Positions 54,532-64,000 of a DNA stretch of 64,000 nucleotides are shown here, piece by piece; position 1 is the first letter of the stretch, and each line of letters starts with the position of its first letter. The stretch spans positions 458,628 to 522,627 of the forward strand of contig JACPTS010000001.1 of NCBI GenBank assembly GCA_016192685.1, given 5' to 3'. The notes under the pieces were generated by a model. The model saw only the letters and a list, made by a program, of their open reading frames with translations. It did no database searches and was not told where the DNA came from. Both the position numbers and the translations under genes were made by a program. The stretch comes from Candidatus Harrisonbacteria bacterium. Its GTDB lineage: Bacteria > Patescibacteriota > Minisyncoccia > UBA6257 > 02-FULL-45-10c.

Positions 54532-55296
54532 ATGGAAGATTTATTGACTAGGGAAGAATTAAATAATAATCCGGATAACTTGCCGGTTCTGGAAGAAATG
54601 ATGAAGGCCGGTTTGTTTGTCGGCCGCAGGAGTTCTAAAACTCATCCGAAAATGCGGGGTTTTATTTTAGGCATCCGGAATAAATCTTCGTTAATTGATT
54701 TGGAAGAGACTTTGAAAATGCTGGAAAAAGCAATGGAATTTATAAAAACTAAAGCCGCGGAAAAAGAAGGGAATATTTTATTAGTCGGTACCGCGCCGGT
54801 GGCTAAAAACTCCGTTGAAAAAACCGCCAAACAGCTGGATTTGCCTTTTGTAACGGAGCGTTGGCTGGGCGGGACTTTGACTAATTTTAAGACTTTGTCA
54901 AAAAGGATTGTTTATTTCAAAAAATTAAAAAGCGATAAAGAGGCGGGACGGCTGGATAAATATACCAAAAAAGAACGTTTGGATATTGACCGTCAAATTC
55001 AAAAAATGACCACGATGTTTAGCGGCGTGGAGAAAATGGAATCTTTGCCGGCGGCGCTTTTCGTGGCTGACGTTAATGCGCATTTGACTGCGGTCAGGGA
55101 AGCGAGGCGTTTGAAAATCCCCATTGTCGGGATTATGAATACCGATACTGACCCGGAATTAGTAGACTATCCGATTCTTGCCAATGATCGCAGTAAAGTC
55201 AGCATTGATTGGATTTTAGCGCGTCTGGAAAAGGCGGTGGAAGAAGGACGGGCGCTGGCAAGAGAAGCGGGAAAAGCCGAAGATAAAAAAAGTTAA
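54532..55296 (+). CDS. rpsB: 30S ribosomal protein S2
   Basis: 254 aa with conserved S2 regions; rpsB-tsf order. Confidence 0.85.
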   Translation: MEDLLTREELNNNPDNLPVLEEMMKAGLFVGRRSSKTHPKMRGFILGIRNKSSLIDLEETLKMLEKAMEFIKTKAAEKEGNILLVGTAPVAKNSVEKTAKQLDLPFVTERWLGGTLTNFKTLSKRIVYFKKLKSDKEAGRLDKYTKKERLDIDRQIQKMTTMFSGVEKMESLPAALFVADVNAHLTAVREARRLKIPIVGIMNTDTDPELVDYPILANDRSKVSIDWILARLEKAVEEGRALAREAGKAEDKKS

Positions 55297-55298
55297 TC

Positions 55299-55739
55299 GT
55301 GACTACTGTTATCCAAAAATTAAGGGAGGAAACCGGCGCCGGAGTGATGGATTGCAAGCGGGCTTTGGAGGAAGCCGGCGGAGATTTTAATTTAGCGAAA
55401 CAACTTATTGAAAAACAGGGGCTGGTGAAAGCGGCCAAAAAAGCCGAGCGGGCCACTGGCGCTGGCCTTTTAGAGGCTTATGTGCATAACGGCCGGGTCG
55501 GAGTTTTGCTGGAGCTTCGTTCCGAAACTGATTTTGTTGCTCACTCGGAGCCTGTTAAAGCGTTAGCCCATAATTTGGCGCTTCACGTTGCGGCTATGGC
55601 TCCGGAGACGGTTGATGATTTATTAAAACAGCCGTATGCGAGGGATGAGGCAAAAACCGTAGAGGAAGTAATTAAGGGAACGATTGCTATAGTTGGTGAG
55701 AATTTAAAGGTGGCCAGATTTTCCCGATATCAGATATAA
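55299..55739 (+). CDS. tsf: Elongation factor Ts (short form)
   Basis: N-terminal UBA-like IQKLREETGAGVMDCKRALEEAGGD; 146 aa. Confidence 0.8.
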   Translation: MTTVIQKLREETGAGVMDCKRALEEAGGDFNLAKQLIEKQGLVKAAKKAERATGAGLLEAYVHNGRVGVLLELRSETDFVAHSEPVKALAHNLALHVAAMAPETVDDLLKQPYARDEAKTVEEVIKGTIAIVGENLKVARFSRYQI

Positions 55740-55753
55740 GATATAATAGAATC

Positions 55754-56080
55754 GTGTACAACTTTATCCTTCAAACCATTGTAATGTTGAGCCTCGGCGC
55801 CTTGATTTATCTGGTGGCGCGGGCTGTACCGCGAGTTTCCGAAACCGAGATTAAAACTTTCTCTCCCGGTGATTCTCTTGATCGGTGGATTAAAAAGTTG
55901 CCGCTGGAAAAAATGGACGCTTGGTTAAGCAGCCAATTGGAAAAATTCTTGCGGAAATTTAAAGTAGCGGTTTTGAAATTAGATAATCTTTTAACTAAGC
56001 ATCTTTCTAATTTAAAATCCGTCGCTACCGAAGAAAAACCAACCTTATTTGAAAAAAAAGAGGACAATGATATAAAGTAA
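55754..56080 (+). CDS. Hypothetical small membrane protein
   Basis: N-terminal TM segment, 108 aa. Confidence 0.35.
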   Translation: MYNFILQTIVMLSLGALIYLVARAVPRVSETEIKTFSPGDSLDRWIKKLPLEKMDAWLSSQLEKFLRKFKVAVLKLDNLLTKHLSNLKSVATEEKPTLFEKKEDNDIK

Positions 56081-56092
56081 AAAGTAGAATCT

Positions 56093-56179
56093 GGGCAGAT
56101 ACCAAAGCGGTCAAATGGGACTGGCTGTAGACCAGTTGGCTTTACGCCTTCGGGGGTTCGAATCCCTCTCTGCCCACCA
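56093..56179 (+). tRNA. tRNA-Tyr(GUA), long variable arm, CCA encoded
   Basis: gggcaga ta cca aagcggtcaaa tgg g actgg ctgtaga ccagt + variable arm + ggggg ttcgaat ccctc tctgccc a cca. Confidence 0.8.
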
Positions 56180-56240
56180 TTGAAATATAAAATTATCTTT
56201 GATAAGCTATTTTTAGCGTTAACCTTAAAAACCGAATAAG

Positions 56241-56486
56241 ATGACTCGTAATGAACTTATCTTAAAGATTCAAGCGGCTTCCAAAGAGGATGATAAAGAG
56301 TTTCAGGAAATTATCGCCACCCTGCTTGATCAAGGTTTTTTGACAGAAACAGATTTATGCCGAGAGATTGGTGCTTCAAAACCAACTATTCGCAGATGGA
56401 AAGAAGGAAAAAGTTCTCCGCTTCCGTTGATGCGACTACATCTTTTCAAACGATTGATTAAAAAACTTCAAGAAAACGACCTTTAA
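56241..56486 (+). CDS. Hypothetical protein, possible HTH DNA-binding
   Basis: 81 aa; segment TDLCREIGASKPTIRRWKEG is helix-turn-helix-like. Confidence 0.3.
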   Translation: MTRNELILKIQAASKEDDKEFQEIIATLLDQGFLTETDLCREIGASKPTIRRWKEGKSSPLPLMRLHLFKRLIKKLQENDL

Positions 56487-56527
56487 AATAACTTGCGTCA
56501 GCAAGTTATTTTTAATATTCTAAGTTT

Positions 56528-56860
56528 ATGCCTTATATTGCCCCAAAAGACAGAAAAAAGATTGACCCGCTGATTGATAAATTGGCTGGCGCGATTGTAA
56601 AAGAAGCCAAAGAATCTAAATATGACGCCGCTTTTGCCGGTTTATTGAATTACACTTGCACTCGTTTAGCTTTGAAAGTCACCCGGGCTTTGTTCGGTAA
56701 AATGCGCTACTGGATTATTGCCACGGTTATCGGAACTTTTAACAATATCGCGGACGAATTTTACCGCCGGATCGGCCTTCCTTATGAAAATAAACAAATG
56801 AAAAAGAGCGGCGATGTTGATCTTTACGAGGAATATCAAAAGGAAATAGAGTTAGATTAA
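56528..56860 (+). CDS. Hypothetical protein
   Basis: 110 aa, no motif. Confidence 0.3.
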   Translation: MPYIAPKDRKKIDPLIDKLAGAIVKEAKESKYDAAFAGLLNYTCTRLALKVTRALFGKMRYWIIATVIGTFNNIADEFYRRIGLPYENKQMKKSGDVDLYEEYQKEIELD

Positions 56861-56869
56861 TTTTTGTAA

Positions 56870-56940
56870 GCCTCCTTAGCTTAGTGGCAAAGCAACGGTT
56901 TTGTAAACCGTAGACGTCAGTTCGATTCTGACAGGAGGCT
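56870..56940 (+). tRNA. tRNA-Thr(UGU)
   Basis: gcctcct ta gctt agtggca aagc a acggt tttgtaa accgt agac gtcag ttcgatt ctgac aggaggc t. Confidence 0.8.
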
Positions 56941-56988
56941 CAATTTGAAAAATATTTCTAAGACAGTTATAATTAATAACAGATTTTT

Positions 56989-57277
56989 GCCGATGTAGCT
57001 CAGTGGTAGAGCAACTCCATGGTGGGTCGCAAGATCCTGGGAAGTCAGACTTCCATCCGCCCATTCGCCGAGTAATTGGTGAATGAATCCCGAATAACGG
57101 TTAAAAACCAAGTCAAACTTGGCTAAGACCGTGGCCGCCGTAGGCGGCCCGAACGACTGACAAGGGGCTCCGGTAATTTCGGAGTAAGATACAGTCTAGT
57201 CCTCTTATAATCCCTTATTGGAGAAATAGAGGTGTAAGCGAAGGAGTAGGTCGTCGGTTCAATCCCGACCATCGGCT
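56989..57277 (+). tRNA. tRNA-Thr(GGU) interrupted by a ~217-nt group I intron (exons 56989-57023 and 57241-57277)
   Basis: 5' exon gccgatg ta gctc agtggta gagc a actcc atggt; 3' exon aa ggagt aggtc gtcgg ttcaatc ccgac catcggc t. Exons restore perfect acceptor and anticodon stems. Intron has gactg...cagtc P7-like pairing and a ...AAGATACAGTCTAGTCC segment; omega-G at 57240. Confidence 0.6.
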
Positions 57278-57321
57278 CAAATTTGATTTTTGAGTCAATA
57301 TAAAGTAAAATAAATTACTAT

Positions 57322-57492
57322 ATGAGCGAGTCAAAGTTTTCTAAAAACTTAATCAAGCTTCGGTGCGAAGTCTGCAAGATGGTTAATTATTATACCCGCA
57401 AGAATAAAAAGAAAGTGGAACGGAAGATTGAAACCAGCAAATTCTGCAAACATTGCCGGAGGCACACTAAACATAAAGAAGCCAAAAAATAA
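57322..57492 (+). CDS. rpmG: 50S ribosomal protein L33
   Basis: 56 aa [30 protein letters not shown]...[12 protein letters not shown], four-Cys zinc ribbon; not in the ORF track. Confidence 0.8.
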
Positions 57493-57523
57493 TCGAGCAC
57501 ATAAACTTGTTATGTGCTCGATT
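57491..57523 (+). terminator. Intrinsic terminator built on the GAGCACATAA-family palindrome
   Basis: aatcgagcacataa acttg ttatgtgctcgatt followed by atttttt. Confidence 0.65.
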
Positions 57524-57551
57524 ATTTTTTAGTATTAGAATATTCCTATAA

Positions 57552-57622
57552 GGGGGCGTCGTATAATGGTAGTACAGCGGTCTCCAAAACCGTTAGTCAG
57601 GGTTCGATTCCTTGCGCCCCCG
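57552..57622 (+). tRNA. tRNA-Trp(CCA)
   Basis: gggggcg tc gtat aatggta gtac a gcggt ctccaaa accgt tagt caggg ttcgatt ccttg cgccccc g. Confidence 0.8.
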
Positions 57623-59077
57623 CATTTCAAGTAAAGTGGTAGGTTTTGATGATATTGTTGCAAGTTCTTGATAGCCATTTTTGAATGTAAAACTCGCTAT
57701 TTTTTGATTTCTAATTTTGCAGTTCGAAAGTAAATTATTTAGCAATTCTCTCTTTTCTTCATTTTTTGCAAATTTAAATACTTTTGCCGCTGTTTGTGCT
57801 TTAAAAAAGGCATTTCTCATTTGTTCGAAAGTAATAACATCCTTCTGATCATTTTCATTTGTTTTGGTTTCTAAACTTACTACCTCATTCTGTAGTTCCC
57901 TCATTTTTGATTCATAAACCTCTTTAGAAATGATTCCGGAGATATAAGTGTCTAATAATCTATTCTTTTTATCCTTAACGCTATTAAGCTCTTTTAAACG
58001 CATTTCTTCCATCTTTTCTGAACGATCATACTCAACCTTATATTTTTCTTTGTCAGCTTCAAATGCCAATTCAACCAATTTTTCATCAAACTGAAGTTTT
58101 TGTAGAAGTTTAGAGATAAGATTCTCGGCATCTTTGGAAGTAAGGTGTTTATTCCTTTGGTTGCAGATTCCTTTTCCGTTTGTGCAGTAATAGTAAATAT
58201 ATTTTCCTTTTTGAAGCGTAGCGGTTAGTAGGCATCCACAAACATCACAATTCATAAACCCACGAAGGGGGAAGCAATTCTTTTTCTTTTTTGATTTATT
58301 ATTTCCACCAAGGATTTCATTTGCTTTATCGAATAAATCTTTGCTTATAAGCGGTTCATGATTGCCGCGATAATAAATTCCTTGTTTAAGCATTACCCCA
58401 TAATAAAAAGGATTTCTAAGAATAAAATAAATTGTGCTTTTGGAAATTTTTTGACCAGACTTTGGTCTGTACCCATCTTCGTAAAGTATATCCGCAAGTT
58501 CTTTTGGGGTGTATTTTTCAGTTGCGAACAATTCAAATATTCTTTTAATAACTAATGAGTATTTGGGGTCAATAATAATAGTCTGATTTGATTTGTCATT
58601 TAAATATCCAAAAGGAGCAATGCCTGGCCAACCGCCTTTTTCTAATTTGGCCCTAATACCTCGCTTTACATTTACCGATAAATCATCAACATACTTCTTA
58701 GCAATACCGAAGTCTAAGCTCATCATGAATTTGTCGTCAGAGATATTACGGAATACTTTTTCCGGAGTTTTGATTTCAGTAATTAAACCTCTATCCATAA
58801 ACCAAGATACCTTTCCACCATCTAAGGCATTACGAGCTAAACGATCTAATTTCCAAACTAACAGACCACAATTATTTTTCTTTTCTATGAATTTCAGCAT
58901 TTCTTCAAAGATAGGTCTTCCCGGAGCTTTGGCTGACATGGATTCTTTATAGATTTTAATAACATTTAAACTATCTTTTTTAGCTAAACATAATAGTTCT
59001 GATTCTTGAGAATCTATTGATTGCACCTGACGATCTTCTGCCTCTGATGATTTACGACAATAAATTATATAGTTCAT
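57593..59077 (-). CDS. Large serine recombinase (resolvase/integrase family)
   Basis: N-terminal catalytic domain YCRKSS...QSIDSQ, recombinase domain, C-terminal zinc ribbon CDVCGC...YYYCTNGKGIC; 494 aa. Confidence 0.8.
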   Translation of the reverse strand: MNYIIYCRKSSEAEDRQVQSIDSQESELLCLAKKDSLNVIKIYKESMSAKAPGRPIFEEMLKFIEKKNNCGLLVWKLDRLARNALDGGKVSWFMDRGLITEIKTPEKVFRNISDDKFMMSLDFGIAKKYVDDLSVNVKRGIRAKLEKGGWPGIAPFGYLNDKSNQTIIIDPKYSLVIKRIFELFATEKYTPKELADILYEDGYRPKSGQKISKSTIYFILRNPFYYGVMLKQGIYYRGNHEPLISKDLFDKANEILGGNNKSKKKKNCFPLRGFMNCDVCGCLLTATLQKGKYIYYYCTNGKGICNQRNKHLTSKDAENLISKLLQKLQFDEKLVELAFEADKEKYKVEYDRSEKMEEMRLKELNSVKDKKNRLLDTYISGIISKEVYESKMRELQNEVVSLETKTNENDQKDVITFEQMRNAFFKAQTAAKVFKFAKNEEKRELLNNLLSNCKIRNQKIASFTFKNGYQELATISSKPTTLLEMRGRKESNPD

Positions 59078-59808
59078 AATTTTTCTTTTAAATAAAATTT
59101 CTTTGTGATTTTACCAGTAAAGTAATTTTCTCCAGACCAATTTTTGAATGATTCTTTTTTATCATACCGGCGCTTAAGTTCTTCAGCAAGTTTTCCGCGG
59201 ATAACTATTTCTTTTGGAAATCCGTGAGATATGCGTAGTAGTCGCATCGCATTAAATAAAACTTCTCCAGCACCTTTAGTTATATATTTACTTATATAAT
59301 ACGCCAACTTTCTAGAACCATCAGTCTTTCGCGCATCCACAAAACCTTGTCCCCATAATTTCGCAAGGATTCGGGTTTTACGTTCATCTCCGTAAGAAAT
59401 AATCCGTCTACCAATTTTCGTATCTCCAAGAGACAAGGGCACGTTAAAAACAAGGCCATGAAAATGGATTCGTCCTCGCGGGGAGAGTTCTGGAACAAAG
59501 AGGGATTGGGCTTTAGGAAATTTAGTTTGCAACCGCACTTGGAAGCGGCGAAGGGAATCGTTTGCAAATGAAGCATCTGAGGCGTCACCTTTAAAGGTGA
59601 GCGTAACCAAGAGCGGGCATCCAAATTCTTCAAGAGCAGAAGACAAGCGCCGCACACATATTTGTTTTGTTCGCCAAATATTATCGCGTCTTCGAGGACC
59701 GTATATAATACGCCTTGCCCTGGGAGAGTATACGCGTATTTTGGATGGCTCTTTTTCGGTTTCTGTGATTTCAACGATTTCGCCATATTTTCGATAAATA
59801 ACTGGCAT
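59074..59808 (-). CDS. HUH rolling-circle replication initiator (pC194/Rep_1-like)
   Basis: Motif I LLVTLTF, motif II HFHGLVF (HUH), motif III YYISKYITK (Y..K); 4-nt overlap with the recombinase start. Confidence 0.6.
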   Translation of the reverse strand: MPVIYRKYGEIVEITETEKEPSKIRVYSPRARRIIYGPRRRDNIWRTKQICVRRLSSALEEFGCPLLVTLTFKGDASDASFANDSLRRFQVRLQTKFPKAQSLFVPELSPRGRIHFHGLVFNVPLSLGDTKIGRRIISYGDERKTRILAKLWGQGFVDARKTDGSRKLAYYISKYITKGAGEVLFNAMRLLRISHGFPKEIVIRGKLAEELKRRYDKKESFKNWSGENYFTGKITKKFYLKEKL

Positions 59809-59837: not shown

Positions 59838-59882
59838 GATATATCAAGTCAGGAGGAGTCCTCGCAGAGCGAGGACTCCTCC
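59838..59882 (-). promoter_or_regulatory. Candidate double-strand origin (dso): CTTGATA nick motif adjacent to a 14-bp GC-rich perfect hairpin
   Basis: Minus-strand cttgata (plus-strand tatcaag at 59842-59848), next to ggaggagtcctcgc aga gcgaggactcctcc (59852-59882), ~45 nt upstream of the rep start. Confidence 0.45.
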
Positions 59883-60114
59883 TTCTTAATAGGGAAAACC
59901 CGACAGACTAATCCAGCTAAATTCGCCAAAGACGATAAAAATTCAGCCGCGCCCTCTTTACTAATTGGCCGACCTTTTATTTCAAAATATTGAATTGTTT
60001 TATTGATTAGTTCTTCGCTGAATTGATCCATAAGCAAACTTTAATTTGCCCATTTGACGGAAAACGGGTATAAACTTACAGATAAGTTCAAAATTCAGCT
60101 AACTTTCGTTTTTT

Positions 60115-61044
60115 ATGCTTAAAAAACTATTTGGAAATAAAGTTAAAAAAATACCCAGGGTTTTCCCAAGTGGAGTTTTAACATTTGAAAAATCTGGTCA
60201 CACATTAACTCAAGATAAAAATTTCTATGTGTGTTCTAAAAAACAAAAAGGAGTGTGTGAAAATGATAATGAAACTCGCCTAAAAGCAGAAATTTTTCAA
60301 AGGAATTTTTCTAGATTAGCTATGAAATTTTCTATACCTGACGGGAATCAAGCGTTTCTTTCTAAAAATATGGTAGCCAAAATTTTACATGCTTTTATAG
60401 ATGAAATAACCGAATCCAATTTAGACACCGAGTTTTTTGATACAACTATTGATGTAATGGAGCAAGAATCTGGAATTAATAAAAAACAATATAAAACCGA
60501 CTTTAAAGATGCAAAAAATAGCTATGTAGCCATACAAAATGAAAATACAATATTGCCTCTTGCCTCAATACTTATTTCAGTAATCATAACTTTTATAAGA
60601 CAAGACAAATCAGAAGCAGAAATGGGAGCAGTTCTAGCGTATTTATCCGATAAAGTTTATTTATCTGATAGCGGCAAAATTAACAAAATTAAATTTAACA
60701 AATTAGGAAATTATATAGTGCAATATATTCAAAAATATCTCCCAAACTATGGAAATTCATTTAAGCATTTACTTACTAATGCTGAAAAATTTGAGACTTT
60801 AGAATTTAAAAATGTAGCAAAATTAATACGAAAAGGAGAAATGGATAATTTGCTTCCGTATGATCCATTTCAATCTAGCTATACTATTAGCAAATACATA
60901 AAATTAACCTTTTCAAATATCTTAGAACTAAAACCGGAAAGGGCAATTGATCATTTAAAGTTTCTTGGCTCTGACCTACAATGGTGGGCGATAAATAATT
61001 TATTAAGATTAATTGGAATAAAGCCAGTTAAAAAAGATGAATGA
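60115..61044 (+). CDS. Hypothetical protein (element cargo)
   Basis: 309 aa, AT-rich codon usage, no motif. Confidence 0.35.
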   Translation: MLKKLFGNKVKKIPRVFPSGVLTFEKSGHTLTQDKNFYVCSKKQKGVCENDNETRLKAEIFQRNFSRLAMKFSIPDGNQAFLSKNMVAKILHAFIDEITESNLDTEFFDTTIDVMEQESGINKKQYKTDFKDAKNSYVAIQNENTILPLASILISVIITFIRQDKSEAEMGAVLAYLSDKVYLSDSGKINKIKFNKLGNYIVQYIQKYLPNYGNSFKHLLTNAEKFETLEFKNVAKLIRKGEMDNLLPYDPFQSSYTISKYIKLTFSNILELKPERAIDHLKFLGSDLQWWAINNLLRLIGIKPVKKDE

Positions 61045-61098
61045 ATAAGTTATACTTTAACTAACAATTTAATTGCCTAAACCTTAATTTATTAGGGC

Positions 61099-62361
61099 AT
61101 GGCTAAAAGACCCGATGAAGATACTGAACCCCGCGTTCAGCAACTCTTCATCGGGCCATATTGGGAAACTGATATGGGGTCGCAAGACCTAGCTGGTGCG
61201 GGGTTTAGTATTTATATGGCATTAACTAAATGTAATGAATGTGGCGGAGAAGTATCAGATAAAGCATCTATTTGCCCGCATTGTGGTAATCCAATTCATA
61301 CTGAACCTAACTCAATAATTAACCCCCCACCTTTACCAATTTCAGAAATAAATATAGAAGAAAAACCGGGGATTCTTTTTAAAATTACTTATACAATATT
61401 ATGGATATTTGCTGTATTAATAATAGTTTTTGTTCTCATACTTGTAATTGGGCCATTTATACTCCCAAATAATCTTTATAAAGACCTTATATTACAAGAA
61501 CTGACGAATTCACCAACAAACCTTTTCCAAAAGCAGTGGTGGCAAGAATTTCAACAGAAGATACCACAAACAAAAGATTCTTCCCCAACGTCATCAACAA
61601 AAATTATTTTTAATCCAAAACTTATTTCTGATAGTAAATTTTCATTCTATACATTGAACGTAGGAAAGAACGAAGACCATAATATATCTTATAGAGACGA
61701 GCAAGGAATAATAAAATTACTTAATACAATAAATTATCCACCCAAATTAACACAAAATTTAATCATAATTTTTATAAATCCAGATGATGTAACTTCAGAT
61801 ATGATACTTGTAAATCCGGATAAAACTTGGTTAAATTTTTCTGATAATAGAACTGCAGAGGGTGGGCTTTATGCAACAAATAAAAATTGGCATTGGATTG
61901 AAATTAATAAACCAGTACCATCATTTACTGGAGCAATTTTAATTCATGAGCTCGGTCATCGTGTAGCTACAGAATTAACTCAACAAGAATGGGATAATTA
62001 CTATAAACTCCGAGGTATATCAGCTAATACATCAAGAAATATAAATAATTGGATTTTATCCCCACAAGAAGATTTTGCCGAAGTTTTTAAATATATTTTT
62101 CGCCAAGGAGACCCTAAAATATCCGTAGAATGGCAGATCCGAACTCAATATGGAAATGTTATACCAACAAATGAATTGATTGAACCAGTAATAACGGGAT
62201 GTGATTCTTTATTCGGAAGAGCCGATCAAAAGAAATTACAAAGTTGTAGAAATGCTAATAGCGGAGCGCTCGATTGGGTTGGTAGGCCTTTATATTTTAG
62301 GGTTACTGATTCAGCAACAGAACAATTTATCAGAAATATTATTAAAAGATTATTGCAATAA
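61099..62361 (+). CDS. Membrane-anchored protein with N-terminal zinc ribbon and C-terminal HExxH zincin-like domain
   Basis: CNECGG...CPHCGN zinc ribbon, one TM helix (ILWIFAVLIIVFVLILVIGPFIL), HELGH motif with downstream Glu. Confidence 0.45.
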   Translation: MAKRPDEDTEPRVQQLFIGPYWETDMGSQDLAGAGFSIYMALTKCNECGGEVSDKASICPHCGNPIHTEPNSIINPPPLPISEINIEEKPGILFKITYTILWIFAVLIIVFVLILVIGPFILPNNLYKDLILQELTNSPTNLFQKQWWQEFQQKIPQTKDSSPTSSTKIIFNPKLISDSKFSFYTLNVGKNEDHNISYRDEQGIIKLLNTINYPPKLTQNLIIIFINPDDVTSDMILVNPDKTWLNFSDNRTAEGGLYATNKNWHWIEINKPVPSFTGAILIHELGHRVATELTQQEWDNYYKLRGISANTSRNINNWILSPQEDFAEVFKYIFRQGDPKISVEWQIRTQYGNVIPTNELIEPVITGCDSLFGRADQKKLQSCRNANSGALDWVGRPLYFRVTDSATEQFIRNIIKRLLQ

Positions 62362-62368
62362 TTTAATT

Positions 62369-62842
62369 ATGAAAAATATTGAATTTTCAAGAGAATTAAT
62401 AAAGGGCAGGATTGCTGAAGTAATATTTGAACAAATGATCCGTGAGGAAGAAAAATATACTGTTATACCATTTGGCTATGAGCATACTATGCCCACACTT
62501 GCTCAATACAGGCATCTCGCAGAAATCCCTAAAATTATTGATAATATTGCAGACGCTCCCGACTTCGCTCTTATTTCAGAAAATAACAATGAAATCTTTC
62601 TTGTTGAAGTGAAGTATCAACACAAACTTAATCTCGCCAAACTCGAAGAATATGCTAATAAATTATTAAACCGATGGGACTACCCATGGCTTTTTGTGGC
62701 AACGCTTGATGGCTTTTATTGTGGTTTATGTAAATGGATTGTTGATGAGAAAAAGATCAACAAATTATCAGAAAATTGGGTTACAAAAGAACGCCAAGTA
62801 GAATACTTAGAATTATTGAAAGAATTTGAAAAACAGTCTTAA
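62369..62842 (+). CDS. PD-(D/E)xK nuclease-fold protein
   Basis: Motif PDFALI...EIFLVEVKYQ (D...E-x-K); the ORF-track start at 62201 overlaps the upstream gene, and the ATG at 62369 is preferred. Confidence 0.45.
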   Translation: MKNIEFSRELIKGRIAEVIFEQMIREEEKYTVIPFGYEHTMPTLAQYRHLAEIPKIIDNIADAPDFALISENNNEIFLVEVKYQHKLNLAKLEEYANKLLNRWDYPWLFVATLDGFYCGLCKWIVDEKKINKLSENWVTKERQVEYLELLKEFEKQS

Positions 62843-62907
62843 TTCTTGCTTGATTATCTTAAAATTTAGATATATTATTTATCATGGCTTGAAGAAACTT
62901 TTTAATT

Positions 62908-63549
62908 ATGGACGATGAATTTATCTATACATTATTTTTTACAAAAGAAGAGATAAAAAAGTTTTTGGAAGATTATAGTATACCAGAAACGAAAGATTAC
63001 GAATTTGTTGTCGCAGTTATTTTTCACCATTATTTTTCTGAAAAAAACCAAAGAAATAAATACTGGATTGGTTTCAAAATACGGTTAGATTACTTAAAAA
63101 TTTTACCATCCCGTGGCTCTAAGGAGCCAAGAAAGCTATCAGAAATTGCAGAACTTTTTAGAAAAGGCATTGACGAAAACTCTATTATTGATTTTATTAT
63201 CGCAAAAGAAGTAAATATAAAAAAAGCAGAAGTAAAAACTTTTCAAGTAAAACGATTTGGTATAGGTAGAACAAAAAAAGACACAAATGAATTAATTGCT
63301 TATCTTAAAAATTTATTCATGCGTAAATATGGTAAAAAAGCAAAAACCGATCTTGTTGTTGTTCTAGATAATGGAGTAAACATTGATATGAAAAAATTAT
63401 ATGCCGAGATTAATACAGTTAATAATCCCTTCGATAGAGTATTATTTATATGGTTTGACGATAAGATGGTCTATCTAAGTCATGTATATCCACGAGGCGG
63501 TATAGAGAAGTGTCCGATTATTGATATTTTCCCCACATTAACACTATGA
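62908..63549 (+). CDS. Hypothetical protein (element cargo)
   Basis: 213 aa, no motif. Confidence 0.3.
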   Translation: MDDEFIYTLFFTKEEIKKFLEDYSIPETKDYEFVVAVIFHHYFSEKNQRNKYWIGFKIRLDYLKILPSRGSKEPRKLSEIAELFRKGIDENSIIDFIIAKEVNIKKAEVKTFQVKRFGIGRTKKDTNELIAYLKNLFMRKYGKKAKTDLVVVLDNGVNIDMKKLYAEINTVNNPFDRVLFIWFDDKMVYLSHVYPRGGIEKCPIIDIFPTLTL

Positions 63550-63731
63550 AGCAATAAGATTTACATTATCTTACTTTCTATTAATTTGGTTCGAAAATCG
63601 TTTAATACAGCCCGCCAGCTGATTATTCTTTATTAAGCTATTTTTATTGAGGAATTTTTTCTTGATTTTTGGGTTTTTAAATCGTAGTATACATAAGAAA
63701 GTTCTTTAATAAATTGGGGAGCGCCCATATA

Positions 63732-64000
63732 TGCAAAATTTTGATTTGTTTGCCAGGTTTTTAGTAGAATCAAACTTAATTGAAAATATAGAAGATAATT
63801 TGGATTTTGTCAGGGAAGAATTAAGATGCGGCGCAAAAGACGGCCATGCCGGGGCGATTCTTTATCTGGAAAAGTTAGCACAGGATAAAAGCCATCTGCT
63901 GATTGAGGCGGATATAAAAAAGGTTCAAGGTTTAATTACCAAAGAGCAGGGAGAAAAAAGATTTGATCTTATTTTAAAACCAAAGTGGATAGGCAATTAT
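63732..64000 (+). CDS. Hypothetical protein, 3' partial at window end
   Basis: ATG at 63732 with an open frame to the end of the window (MQNFDLFARFLVESNLIENIED...). Confidence 0.25.

Follow-up and report, generated by a model that had tools for sequence, protein, structure and literature searches.

A tRNA-associated integrative element in Candidatus Harrisonbacteria with a LOOT RNA ahead of genes for a predicted zincin-like protein and a predicted PD-(D/E)xK nuclease

We analysed a 64,000-nt stretch of genomic DNA from a member of the Candidate Phyla Radiation (CPR, or Patescibacteria), Candidatus Harrisonbacteria (contig JACPTS010000001.1, positions 458,628 to 522,627; hereafter the window), and found that it contains an integrative rolling-circle element inserted in the chromosome at a tRNA gene. 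The element extends from about 57.59 to about 63.7 kb of the window (∼6.1 kb). Behind a backbone with a serine integrase (Int) and a HUH-type Rep, it carries an accessory block in which a LOOT RNA precedes the genes for a predicted membrane-anchored zincin-like protein (p381), a predicted nuclease (p157) and a further protein (p213). The association of p381 with p157 is recurrent in related loci but facultative, not obligate. We tentatively read the LOOT-led p381/p157 operon, with somewhat less than even confidence, as an accessory conflict or exclusion operon that would act against other mobile DNA or phages. CPR/Patescibacteria make up a large share of bacterial diversity, yet to our knowledge their plasmids and integrative elements have hardly been described.

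The integrative element and its relatives

The element was identified by the combination of a tRNA gene overlapped by an integrase gene, the integrase itself, the Rep and a drop in GC content, all of which bear out the initial annotation in assigning the region to an integrative element. The integration target is a tRNA-Trp gene (anticodon CCA; 57552–57623, plus strand), called by ARAGORN and matched by the Rfam tRNA model with 63.2 bits. Int is encoded on the minus strand (57593–59077; 494 aa) and is a large serine recombinase, with Resolvase, Recombinase and Zn_ribbon_recom domains that all scored above the Pfam cutoffs and a match to PHROG 95 (integrase) at E = 2e-86. The 3′ end of its gene overlaps the 3′ 31 nt of tRNA-Trp, such that the stop codon of Int lies inside the tRNA (57593–57623). 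The adjacent 244-aa Rep (59074–59808, minus strand) matched PF23343 (REP_ORF2-G2P) with 50.1 bits against a cutoff of 27.8, as well as PHROG 3419, and its translation contains the motifs LVTLTF, HFHGLV and YYISKYITK, that is, the HUH and Tyr motifs of rolling-circle initiators. Across the region the GC content falls from ∼0.43 to ∼0.30. Similarly, GC at third codon positions (GC3) is 0.18–0.31 for Int, Rep, p309, p381, p157 and p213, compared to 0.34–0.48 for the flanking host genes.

Downstream of the Rep and recombinase genes, the listing of open reading frames (ORFs) confirmed the co-directional series described initially, at 60115–61044 (309 aa), 61099–62361 (420 aa), 62369–62842 (157 aa), 62908–63549 (213 aa) and 63731 to the window end, all on the plus strand; the minus-strand genes to their left encode a 62-aa ORF, the 244-aa Rep and the 494-aa recombinase. 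The genes are real, as judged from homologues at 31–78% identity in other CPR contigs, and the product of the 420-aa ORF is 100% identical to a 'hypothetical protein' from a metagenome-assembled genome (MAG) of Candidatus Harrisonbacteria. We placed the right end of the element between 63.55 and 63.73 kb, since the Fic-domain gene that begins at 63731 has a host-like GC3 (0.36) and was absent beside related elements.

The backbone consists of a leftward p62–Rep–Int operon and the rightward gene p309, with the accessory block of LOOT, p381, p157 and p213 behind the latter. p62 is a small conserved ORF upstream of Rep (59849–60037, minus strand), with homologues in the same place in the related loci L021 (E = 4e-6) and L132 (E = 5e-5) and similarly placed small ORFs in L123 and L124; it is possibly a regulator or excision factor. 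Between the 3′ end of p62 and the start of Rep lies a GC-rich inverted repeat (59851–59883), whose 15-bp arms pair perfectly around a loop of 3 nt. Analogous hairpins of different sequence were present at the same relative place in L123 (7712–7738) and L124 (7695–7720), all three being GC-rich, perfect or near-perfect, 12–15 bp long with loops of 2–3 nt and located upstream of Rep within the 3′ end of the small ORF. The hairpin is a candidate origin, regulatory or attenuator site. p309 (60115–61044, plus strand) belongs to the backbone and not to the cargo: in the window, L009, L123 and L124 it accompanies Int and Rep, and its homologues (30–47% identity) were seen only beside these two genes in the loci named, plus one on a short contig. 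Its conserved N-terminus (YVCSKKQKGxC...ERNFSRLA; window 60115–60330) could be weakly aligned to the zinc beta-ribbon of Int (residues 260–327; hhalign E = 0.11), and two of five p309 members matched Zn_ribbon_recom at E = 0.005 or weaker, the p309 motif retaining two of the four Cys. From these sequence likenesses, p309 is possibly a recombination or regulatory accessory.

Including the window, nine elements with Int and Rep were found (window, L009, L123, L124, L021, L022, L024, L130 and L132), eight of them in other CPR genomes; L009 is the same element as L007 and L008. In all nine, Int and a tRNA gene of the other strand overlap at their 3′ ends, with the Int frame ending within the tRNA (L009 2172–2237, L123 5388–5420, L022 4844–4903, L024 4545–4604, L124 5280–5333, L021 6356–6367, L130 2465–2495 and L132 63–123), so the element supplies or overlaps the tRNA 3′ end. 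The target tRNAs, with anticodons partly read by eye, are Trp, Gln (several), a Ser-type and a Glu-type. The window and L009 share 69% identity in Rep, 46% in Int, 42% in p157, 34% in p381 and 32% in p309. A p381 homologue is present in eight of the nine elements, in a sample that is skewed towards p381, as seven of the eight related elements were found through p381 searches. This frequency places p381 closer to a hallmark of the element family than to swappable cargo, contrary to its initial description. The ninth element, L124, retains Int, Rep and a p307 gene, without LOOT, p381 or p157, and of the eight elements with p381, five have no p157.

Elements that integrate into tRNA genes and encode an integrase and a rolling-circle Rep are already known. 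Integrative mobilizable elements (IMEs) of Firmicutes and pSAM2-type actinomycete integrative and conjugative elements (AICEs) are 5–20 kb long, insert site-specifically at tRNA 3′ ends and carry an integrase (sometimes of the serine type), a rolling-circle-type Rep and a few accessory genes (PMC5704250, PMC5357655, PMC3218068). The window element resembles them in its Int, HUH Rep and tRNA overlap. It differs in that no relaxase, coupling protein or FtsK-like Tra gene was detected, although Rep might serve as relaxase, in its CPR host, in the Int frame that ends inside the tRNA in all nine cases, and in p309, p62, LOOT and p381, which have no counterpart in IMEs or AICEs. In limited literature searches, we found no description of this CPR element family, of the p381 family or of the genomic context of LOOT. 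The signature of a serine Int gene ending in a tRNA, an HUH Rep, p62 and p309 could be used to map gene flow in CPR bacteria.

The Rep also bears on a different reading, in which the element would be an integrated small single-stranded DNA virus (inovirus-, plectrovirus- or microvirus-like) with p309, p381 and p213 as virion or morphogenesis proteins. Rep falls into PF23343 and is 28–36% identical to microvirus and 'ino'-type Reps, the genome size and tRNA integration would be compatible with such a virus, and inoviruses have been reported in CPR bacteria (PMC6813254). However, the distant tblastn matches of Rep reached Reps of small Firmicutes plasmids equally well as those of microviruses. 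Furthermore, there was no pI/Zot-like ATPase, with no Zot match and no Walker A motif in ORFs of ≥30 aa from 57.5 kb on, the intergenic space is too small for coat-protein ORFs, and no capsid-like match was obtained, the fold matches of p381 in BFVD being to zincins only (viral IrrE, SprT and 'lethal factor' proteins). IMG/VR likewise held no relatives of p381, p157, p213 or Rep. Given that neither a structural gene, an ATPase gene nor an IMG/VR relative was found, we rejected the virus reading, to which we assign a very low probability.

The LOOT leader and the start of p381

At 61074–61190 (plus strand), directly ahead of the accessory genes, we detected a full-length LOOT RNA (Rfam RF03000, model positions 1–121) at 84.8 bits, the gathering score of the family being 46.4 (E = 1.8e-15). 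LOOT is an RNA motif described by Weinberg et al. 2017 (PMC5737381) and listed as a metagenomic RNA in PMC7779021. In the window, codons 1–39 of the '420-aa' ORF are LOOT RNA. Moreover, eight of nine p381 homologues begin at a Met equivalent to residue 40, and the ninth (P0009) has an unrelated upstream extension. The true start codon is therefore at 61216, and the protein comprises 381 aa (p381; 61216–62361, plus strand). The initial annotation was thus correct about the motifs of this protein, which are described below, but not about its length, the RNA having been overlooked. For the same reasons, the 39 N-terminal residues were rejected as a signal or domain.

The 39-codon stretch recurs at 68–84% identity as the N-terminal extension of three unrelated proteins (NucS-like, SNase and DUF5655). 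When the 39-aa pseudo-peptide was compared to 1.84 billion representative proteins, it gave 42 matches, nearly all of them ORFs of 40–130 aa that represent LOOT translations. A survey of the genes downstream of LOOT by means of this pseudo-peptide returned mostly tiny spurious ORFs, together with a few fused genes for membrane or secreted proteins and NucS-like nucleases. Gene callers translate LOOT (window 61099–61215), which has produced the spurious N-termini of P0011–P0013 and the mini-'proteins' P0138–P0179, an annotation error that we flag here for public protein sets.

LOOT is co-oriented with the gene behind it and, where Rfam gave coordinates, lies 22–57 nt before the start codon. The next gene in L009, L123 and L021 is a p381 or p157 gene. 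The arrangement is LOOT, p381, p157 in the window; LOOT, p162, p396 in L009; LOOT, p157, p441 in L123; LOOT, p407 in L021; and LOOT followed by a p381 homologue in L130 and L131, where LOOT was placed by a local nhmmer profile. In L005, LOOT precedes a methylase–Mrr operon that includes p418, and it was also found 5′ of NucS-like and SNase genes.

Just 3′ of the Rfam model, and followed by a T-rich run, positions 61197–61204 can pair with the apical loop of the central LOOT hairpin (61128–61135), forming an 8-bp long-range helix (61128–61204, plus strand) whose 3′ strand ends 12 nt before the p381 ATG in the window. We examined this helix by counting pairs on an alignment of nine sequences, with columns shared with L123, L009, L005, L131, L020, L130 and L022. 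Pairing was present in 88.9% of cells, compared to 38–51% with a slid 3′ partner, and six of the eight pairs had changed on both sides. The covariation score of 0.615 (versus ∼0.1) was reached by none of 500 shuffles, although the helix had first been spotted by eye in the same sequences that were used for these statistics. Folding LOOT against its tail with duplexfold gave inflated duplexes that could not be interpreted, and a scan for promoter and terminator consensus sequences was uninformative, with fewer sites than in shuffled sequence.

The position of LOOT directly 5′ of a co-oriented ORF, together with the 3′ helix near the start codon, suggests that LOOT is a cis-acting leader rather than a free-standing small RNA (sRNA). 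The match to the Rfam entry is full-length and well over the gathering score, but Rfam types the family as an sRNA gene, whereas here an ORF in the same orientation always follows it directly, in many cases within these elements. In addition, the covarying helix extends past the Rfam model, to which the comparison was confined. These loci provide the first consistent genomic context for an orphan RNA, upstream of accessory genes of which many encode nucleases or surface proteins, and they make a regulatory role testable.

p381, p157 and the proposed conflict function

The double CxxC zinc ribbon, single transmembrane helix and HELGH motif noted initially are all present in p381. The ribbon (CxxC-x10-CPHC; 61231–61284) is nearly invariant and is followed by basic residues and one strongly hydrophobic helix (∼61384–61464). 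Within the putative ectodomain, H-E-x-G-H, S-P-x-E-D-F-A-E-V-x-K and two Cys are invariant, H, E, G and H of the first motif being unchanged throughout a 10-sequence alignment. HELGH (61945–61959) and EDFAE (62068–62082), the latter on a predicted helix, are separated by 41–42 residues in all eight loci checked. The ribbon is missing in the p381 homologues of L021, L022 and L024, which retain the anchor. An AlphaFold2 model reached a mean predicted local distance difference test score (pLDDT) of 73 overall and 85–97 around the motifs. In a Foldseek search of the PDB, the named top matches were all zincins (anthrax lethal factor (LF) with E = 0.01, 4l7a, M61, M1 and MATCAP), at weak scores with a template modelling (TM) score of ∼0.25. 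Pfam, PHROGs and NCBIfam searches gave zinc-ribbon matches only. Taken together, motifs and model indicate that p381 is probably a membrane-anchored, outward-facing zincin-like enzyme, predicted to be a gluzincin, of a new sequence family. With 31–34% identity between homologues, compared to 69% for Rep, it is evolving fast.

Anthrax LF has the sequence HEFGH...EFFAEAF, and the motif pair of p381 is similar to that of LF and PPEP (family M34), a likeness that is not a claim of membership. As in those proteases, the HExxH of p381 is followed ∼41 residues on by a Glu in E-x-F-A-E, and LF chains were the best Foldseek matches in the PDB. p381 differs from LF and PPEP in its N-terminal membrane anchor, in the often present cytosolic zinc ribbon, as in TcaA, and in the weak fold scores. 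Membership in M34 was not supported, as none of 10 p381 members gave a Pfam match to ATLF/M34 at E up to 1 and no sequence-profile match was obtained in the PDB.

We are confident in predicting p157 (62369–62842, plus strand; 157 aa) to be a PD-(D/E)xK nuclease of the cytoplasm. Its core, recognised at the outset from PDF...EVK, is supported by the alignment and by Foldseek alike. E17, D65, E80 and K82, the expected catalytic set, are invariant in 22 sequences of the family, and the AlphaFold2 model (pLDDT 92) has the canonical alpha-beta-beta-beta-alpha-beta core. All top Foldseek matches were PD-(D/E)xK proteins (Hjc, RecU, influenza PA-N and BpuSI), with probabilities up to 0.99 and E-values of 0.0035 or weaker. 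Sequence profiles agreed to a limited extent: PDDEXK_11 matched nine of the 22 members (best E = 1.1e-5) and TnsA_N matched 18, both weakly, the window protein matching TnsA_N only (E = 0.038) and thus no curated family beyond its threshold, and no meaningful match was found among PDB sequence profiles. p157 resembles Hjc and RecU in its single-domain core of ∼150 aa with an E...D...ExK set, but is only 11–16% identical to them (TM score ≤0.52) and has two additions, an invariant loop (GYEHTxPxLAQY) and a helix at the C-terminus. The family comprises at least 280 homologue clusters with 60–78% identity across Paceibacteria. The window copy belongs to this main clade (78% identical to P0015), whereas pairwise identity among this copy and those of L009 and L123 is only ∼40%. 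In the three chromosomal contexts of the main clade that were examined, p157 was a lone gene without p381 or LOOT; these are L010 (7001–7465), L012 (7001–7474) and L015 (7001–7465), and the settings included LigT/NUDIX genes, a neighbouring tRNA gene and a position after a type I restriction-modification/SduA_C/YgjP cluster. For a lone gene the clade is unusually well conserved, and it may be either a housekeeping gene or a widely mobile one.

p157 and p381 genes are adjacent, with gaps of 5–10 nt and in both gene orders, in the window, L009 and L123, although the proteins of these three elements are only 31–42% identical to their counterparts, and L018 contains a decayed fourth copy of the pair. 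Elsewhere, nucleases of other families accompany p381 homologues. In L022, the gene 15 nt behind a p381 homologue encodes a DUF2726 protein (PD-(D/E)xK clan), and genes for Mrr_cat (L005) and Endonuc_Holl (contig of P0009) lie two genes from p381 homologues. No adjacent nuclease was found at the p381 loci L019, L020, L021, L024, L030, L130–L132 and L208. The initial expectation that the gene pair co-occurs across genomes was therefore borne out for three divergent elements and the decayed copy, but not for the lone p157 genes or for the majority of p381 loci, which lack an adjacent p157. These observations, together with the optional zinc ribbon, show that the association is not obligate.

In the conflict reading that we tentatively prefer, the LOOT leader, with its covarying 3′ helix near the start codon, would control the operon in cis, exclusion would come from the remodelling of envelope, pilus or adhesin proteins by the surface protease p381, and DNA that enters or competes would be cut by p157. 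Each protein would act in a compartment of its own, and the two would be often co-selected, rather than being obligate or mechanistically coupled partners, given the optional zinc ribbon, the swapped nuclease families and the stand-alone p157 clade. A conflict flavour is also apparent from the surroundings: outside Int–Rep elements, p381 homologues sit among methylase, Mrr, AIPR, AAA_21, HicAB-like and Panacea genes, that is, restriction- and toxin-type neighbours, and LOOT also precedes NucS-like and SNase genes. A more specific version, which we regard as rather unlikely in its entirety, is that LOOT is a riboswitch-like cis leader gating an unrecognised CPR mobile-element conflict module of an LF-like zincin and a minimal PD-(D/E)xK nuclease, which together with Int, Rep, p62 and p309 would constitute a new patescibacterial family of mini-replicons that integrate into tRNA genes. 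An exclusion or defence role of a new kind is plausible for the protease–nuclease pair, which we treat as a lead.

The same linkage could reflect a coupled two-gene defence system, in which the membrane protease would sense or be triggered at the envelope, signal through its cytosolic zinc ribbon and activate the nuclease as effector. Such a system would be in line with the tight linkage that three elements show in either gene order, with the exchange of nuclease families beside p381 homologues and with the defence-island flavour of the neighbourhoods. However, the ribbon, which is the only cytosolic part of p381, is missing in L021, L022 and L024, p157 occurs alone in contexts sampled from at least 280 clusters, most p381 loci have no adjacent nuclease, and PADLOC matched no known system. 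Overall, we consider a coupled system improbable.

Several observations weigh against the preferred conflict operon. PADLOC-DB v2 revealed no known defence system, its sole match being to the zinc ribbon only (E = 0.056); as with the Pfam, NCBIfam and PHROGs results, this agrees with the initial statement that no named system matches. Fold support for a peptidase is weak in p381: no Foldseek match in the PDB had E < 0.001, and the PDB profile search was blank. The main p157 clade, as a lone gene with 60–78% identity, is also compatible with a DNA-repair nuclease of housekeeping type that was picked up by chance. The contexts of p381 were sampled at ∼18 loci. Regarding the element itself, the right boundary was drawn from composition and gene content alone, and no att repeats were found, either by a direct-repeat search in L001, a contig of the same population that continues beyond the window, or by local alignment of each tRNA 3′ end to the far end of six elements. 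Missing att repeats are normal for serine integrases.

Finally, Rep and Int have diverged deeply, yet eight of nine elements retain p381, a pattern more reminiscent of a life-cycle function than of defence cargo. In this alternative, p381 and p157 would be core functions of an element that lacks conjugation and virion genes. The p381 zincin would serve in exit, entry or cell-to-cell transfer, for instance through envelope remodelling, and p157 would resolve or process replication or recombination intermediates. It is in line with the absence of any other candidate transfer function (no ATPase and no Walker A motif were found in the element), with the Holliday junction resolvases Hjc and RecU among the best fold matches of p157, and with the fast evolution of p381, as expected for a surface protein that interacts with hosts. 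Conversely, L124 does without LOOT, p381 and p157, p381 homologues also occur in restriction and toxin islands that have neither Int nor Rep, only three of the eight elements with p381 carry p157 as well, and the elements were discovered mainly through p381, which biases the sample towards it. We regard a life-cycle module as the main alternative, though less likely than not, and retain the conflict operon as our tentative preference.

Further features of p381 loci were recorded. In two of them, p381 homologues are accompanied by other anchored proteases of the extracytoplasmic side. L020 (4909–9143) contains a p381 homologue with a zinc-ribbon/transmembrane/trypsin-like protein and several zinc-ribbon proteins, and in L022 (7809–9950) p272 is followed by DUF2726 and then Trypsin_2. 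In L208 (4285–8254; a Brennerbacteria MAG), a p381 homologue lies ∼250 nt after a tRNA-Thr gene, in the same rpsB–tsf–tRNA-Tyr...tRNA-Thr stretch as at 54532–57623 of the window, with no Int or Rep visible before the contig end. A metagenome scan for p381 loci was swamped by zinc-ribbon-only matches, and L129–L132 alone were useful.

The right end of the element and flanking sequences

The initial grouping of all five rightward ORFs into one cargo module did not hold: p309 belongs to the backbone, p213 has no relative in the related loci and viral contigs searched, and the Fic gene probably lies outside the element, either as a host gene or in a separate small island. p213 (62908–63549, plus strand) is the only element-specific gene, with an element-like GC3 of 0.215. 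Searches of Pfam, PHROGs, PADLOC, NCBIfam and the PDB returned nothing for it. Visual inspection picked out a stretch, D-F-I-I-A...E-V-K...Q-V-K, which may represent a further PD-(D/E)xK-like core.

The 5′ part of the Fic-domain gene occupies 63731–64000 (plus strand). The gene is complete in L001 (6738–7370), where it encodes a 210-aa protein that matches PF02661 and, weakly, the NCBIfam models SoFic and mob_myst_B ('mobile mystery protein B'). Beyond it lie YtxH and metK, encoded on the other strand.

On the left side, exact-protein look-ups of the flanking host genes did not yield an unoccupied insertion site; L33 had no record, and the DUF6899 contigs break near 57.0 kb. A tRNA-like gene at 56990–57280 (plus strand) is apparently split by ∼220 nt, its canonical acceptor/D-arm 5′ half starting at 56990 and its T-arm/acceptor 3′ half ending at 57280. 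It was missed by ARAGORN, had a weak Rfam tRNA match (56989–57061; 20.6 bits) and gave no group I intron match. Several assemblies also break at ∼57.0 kb.

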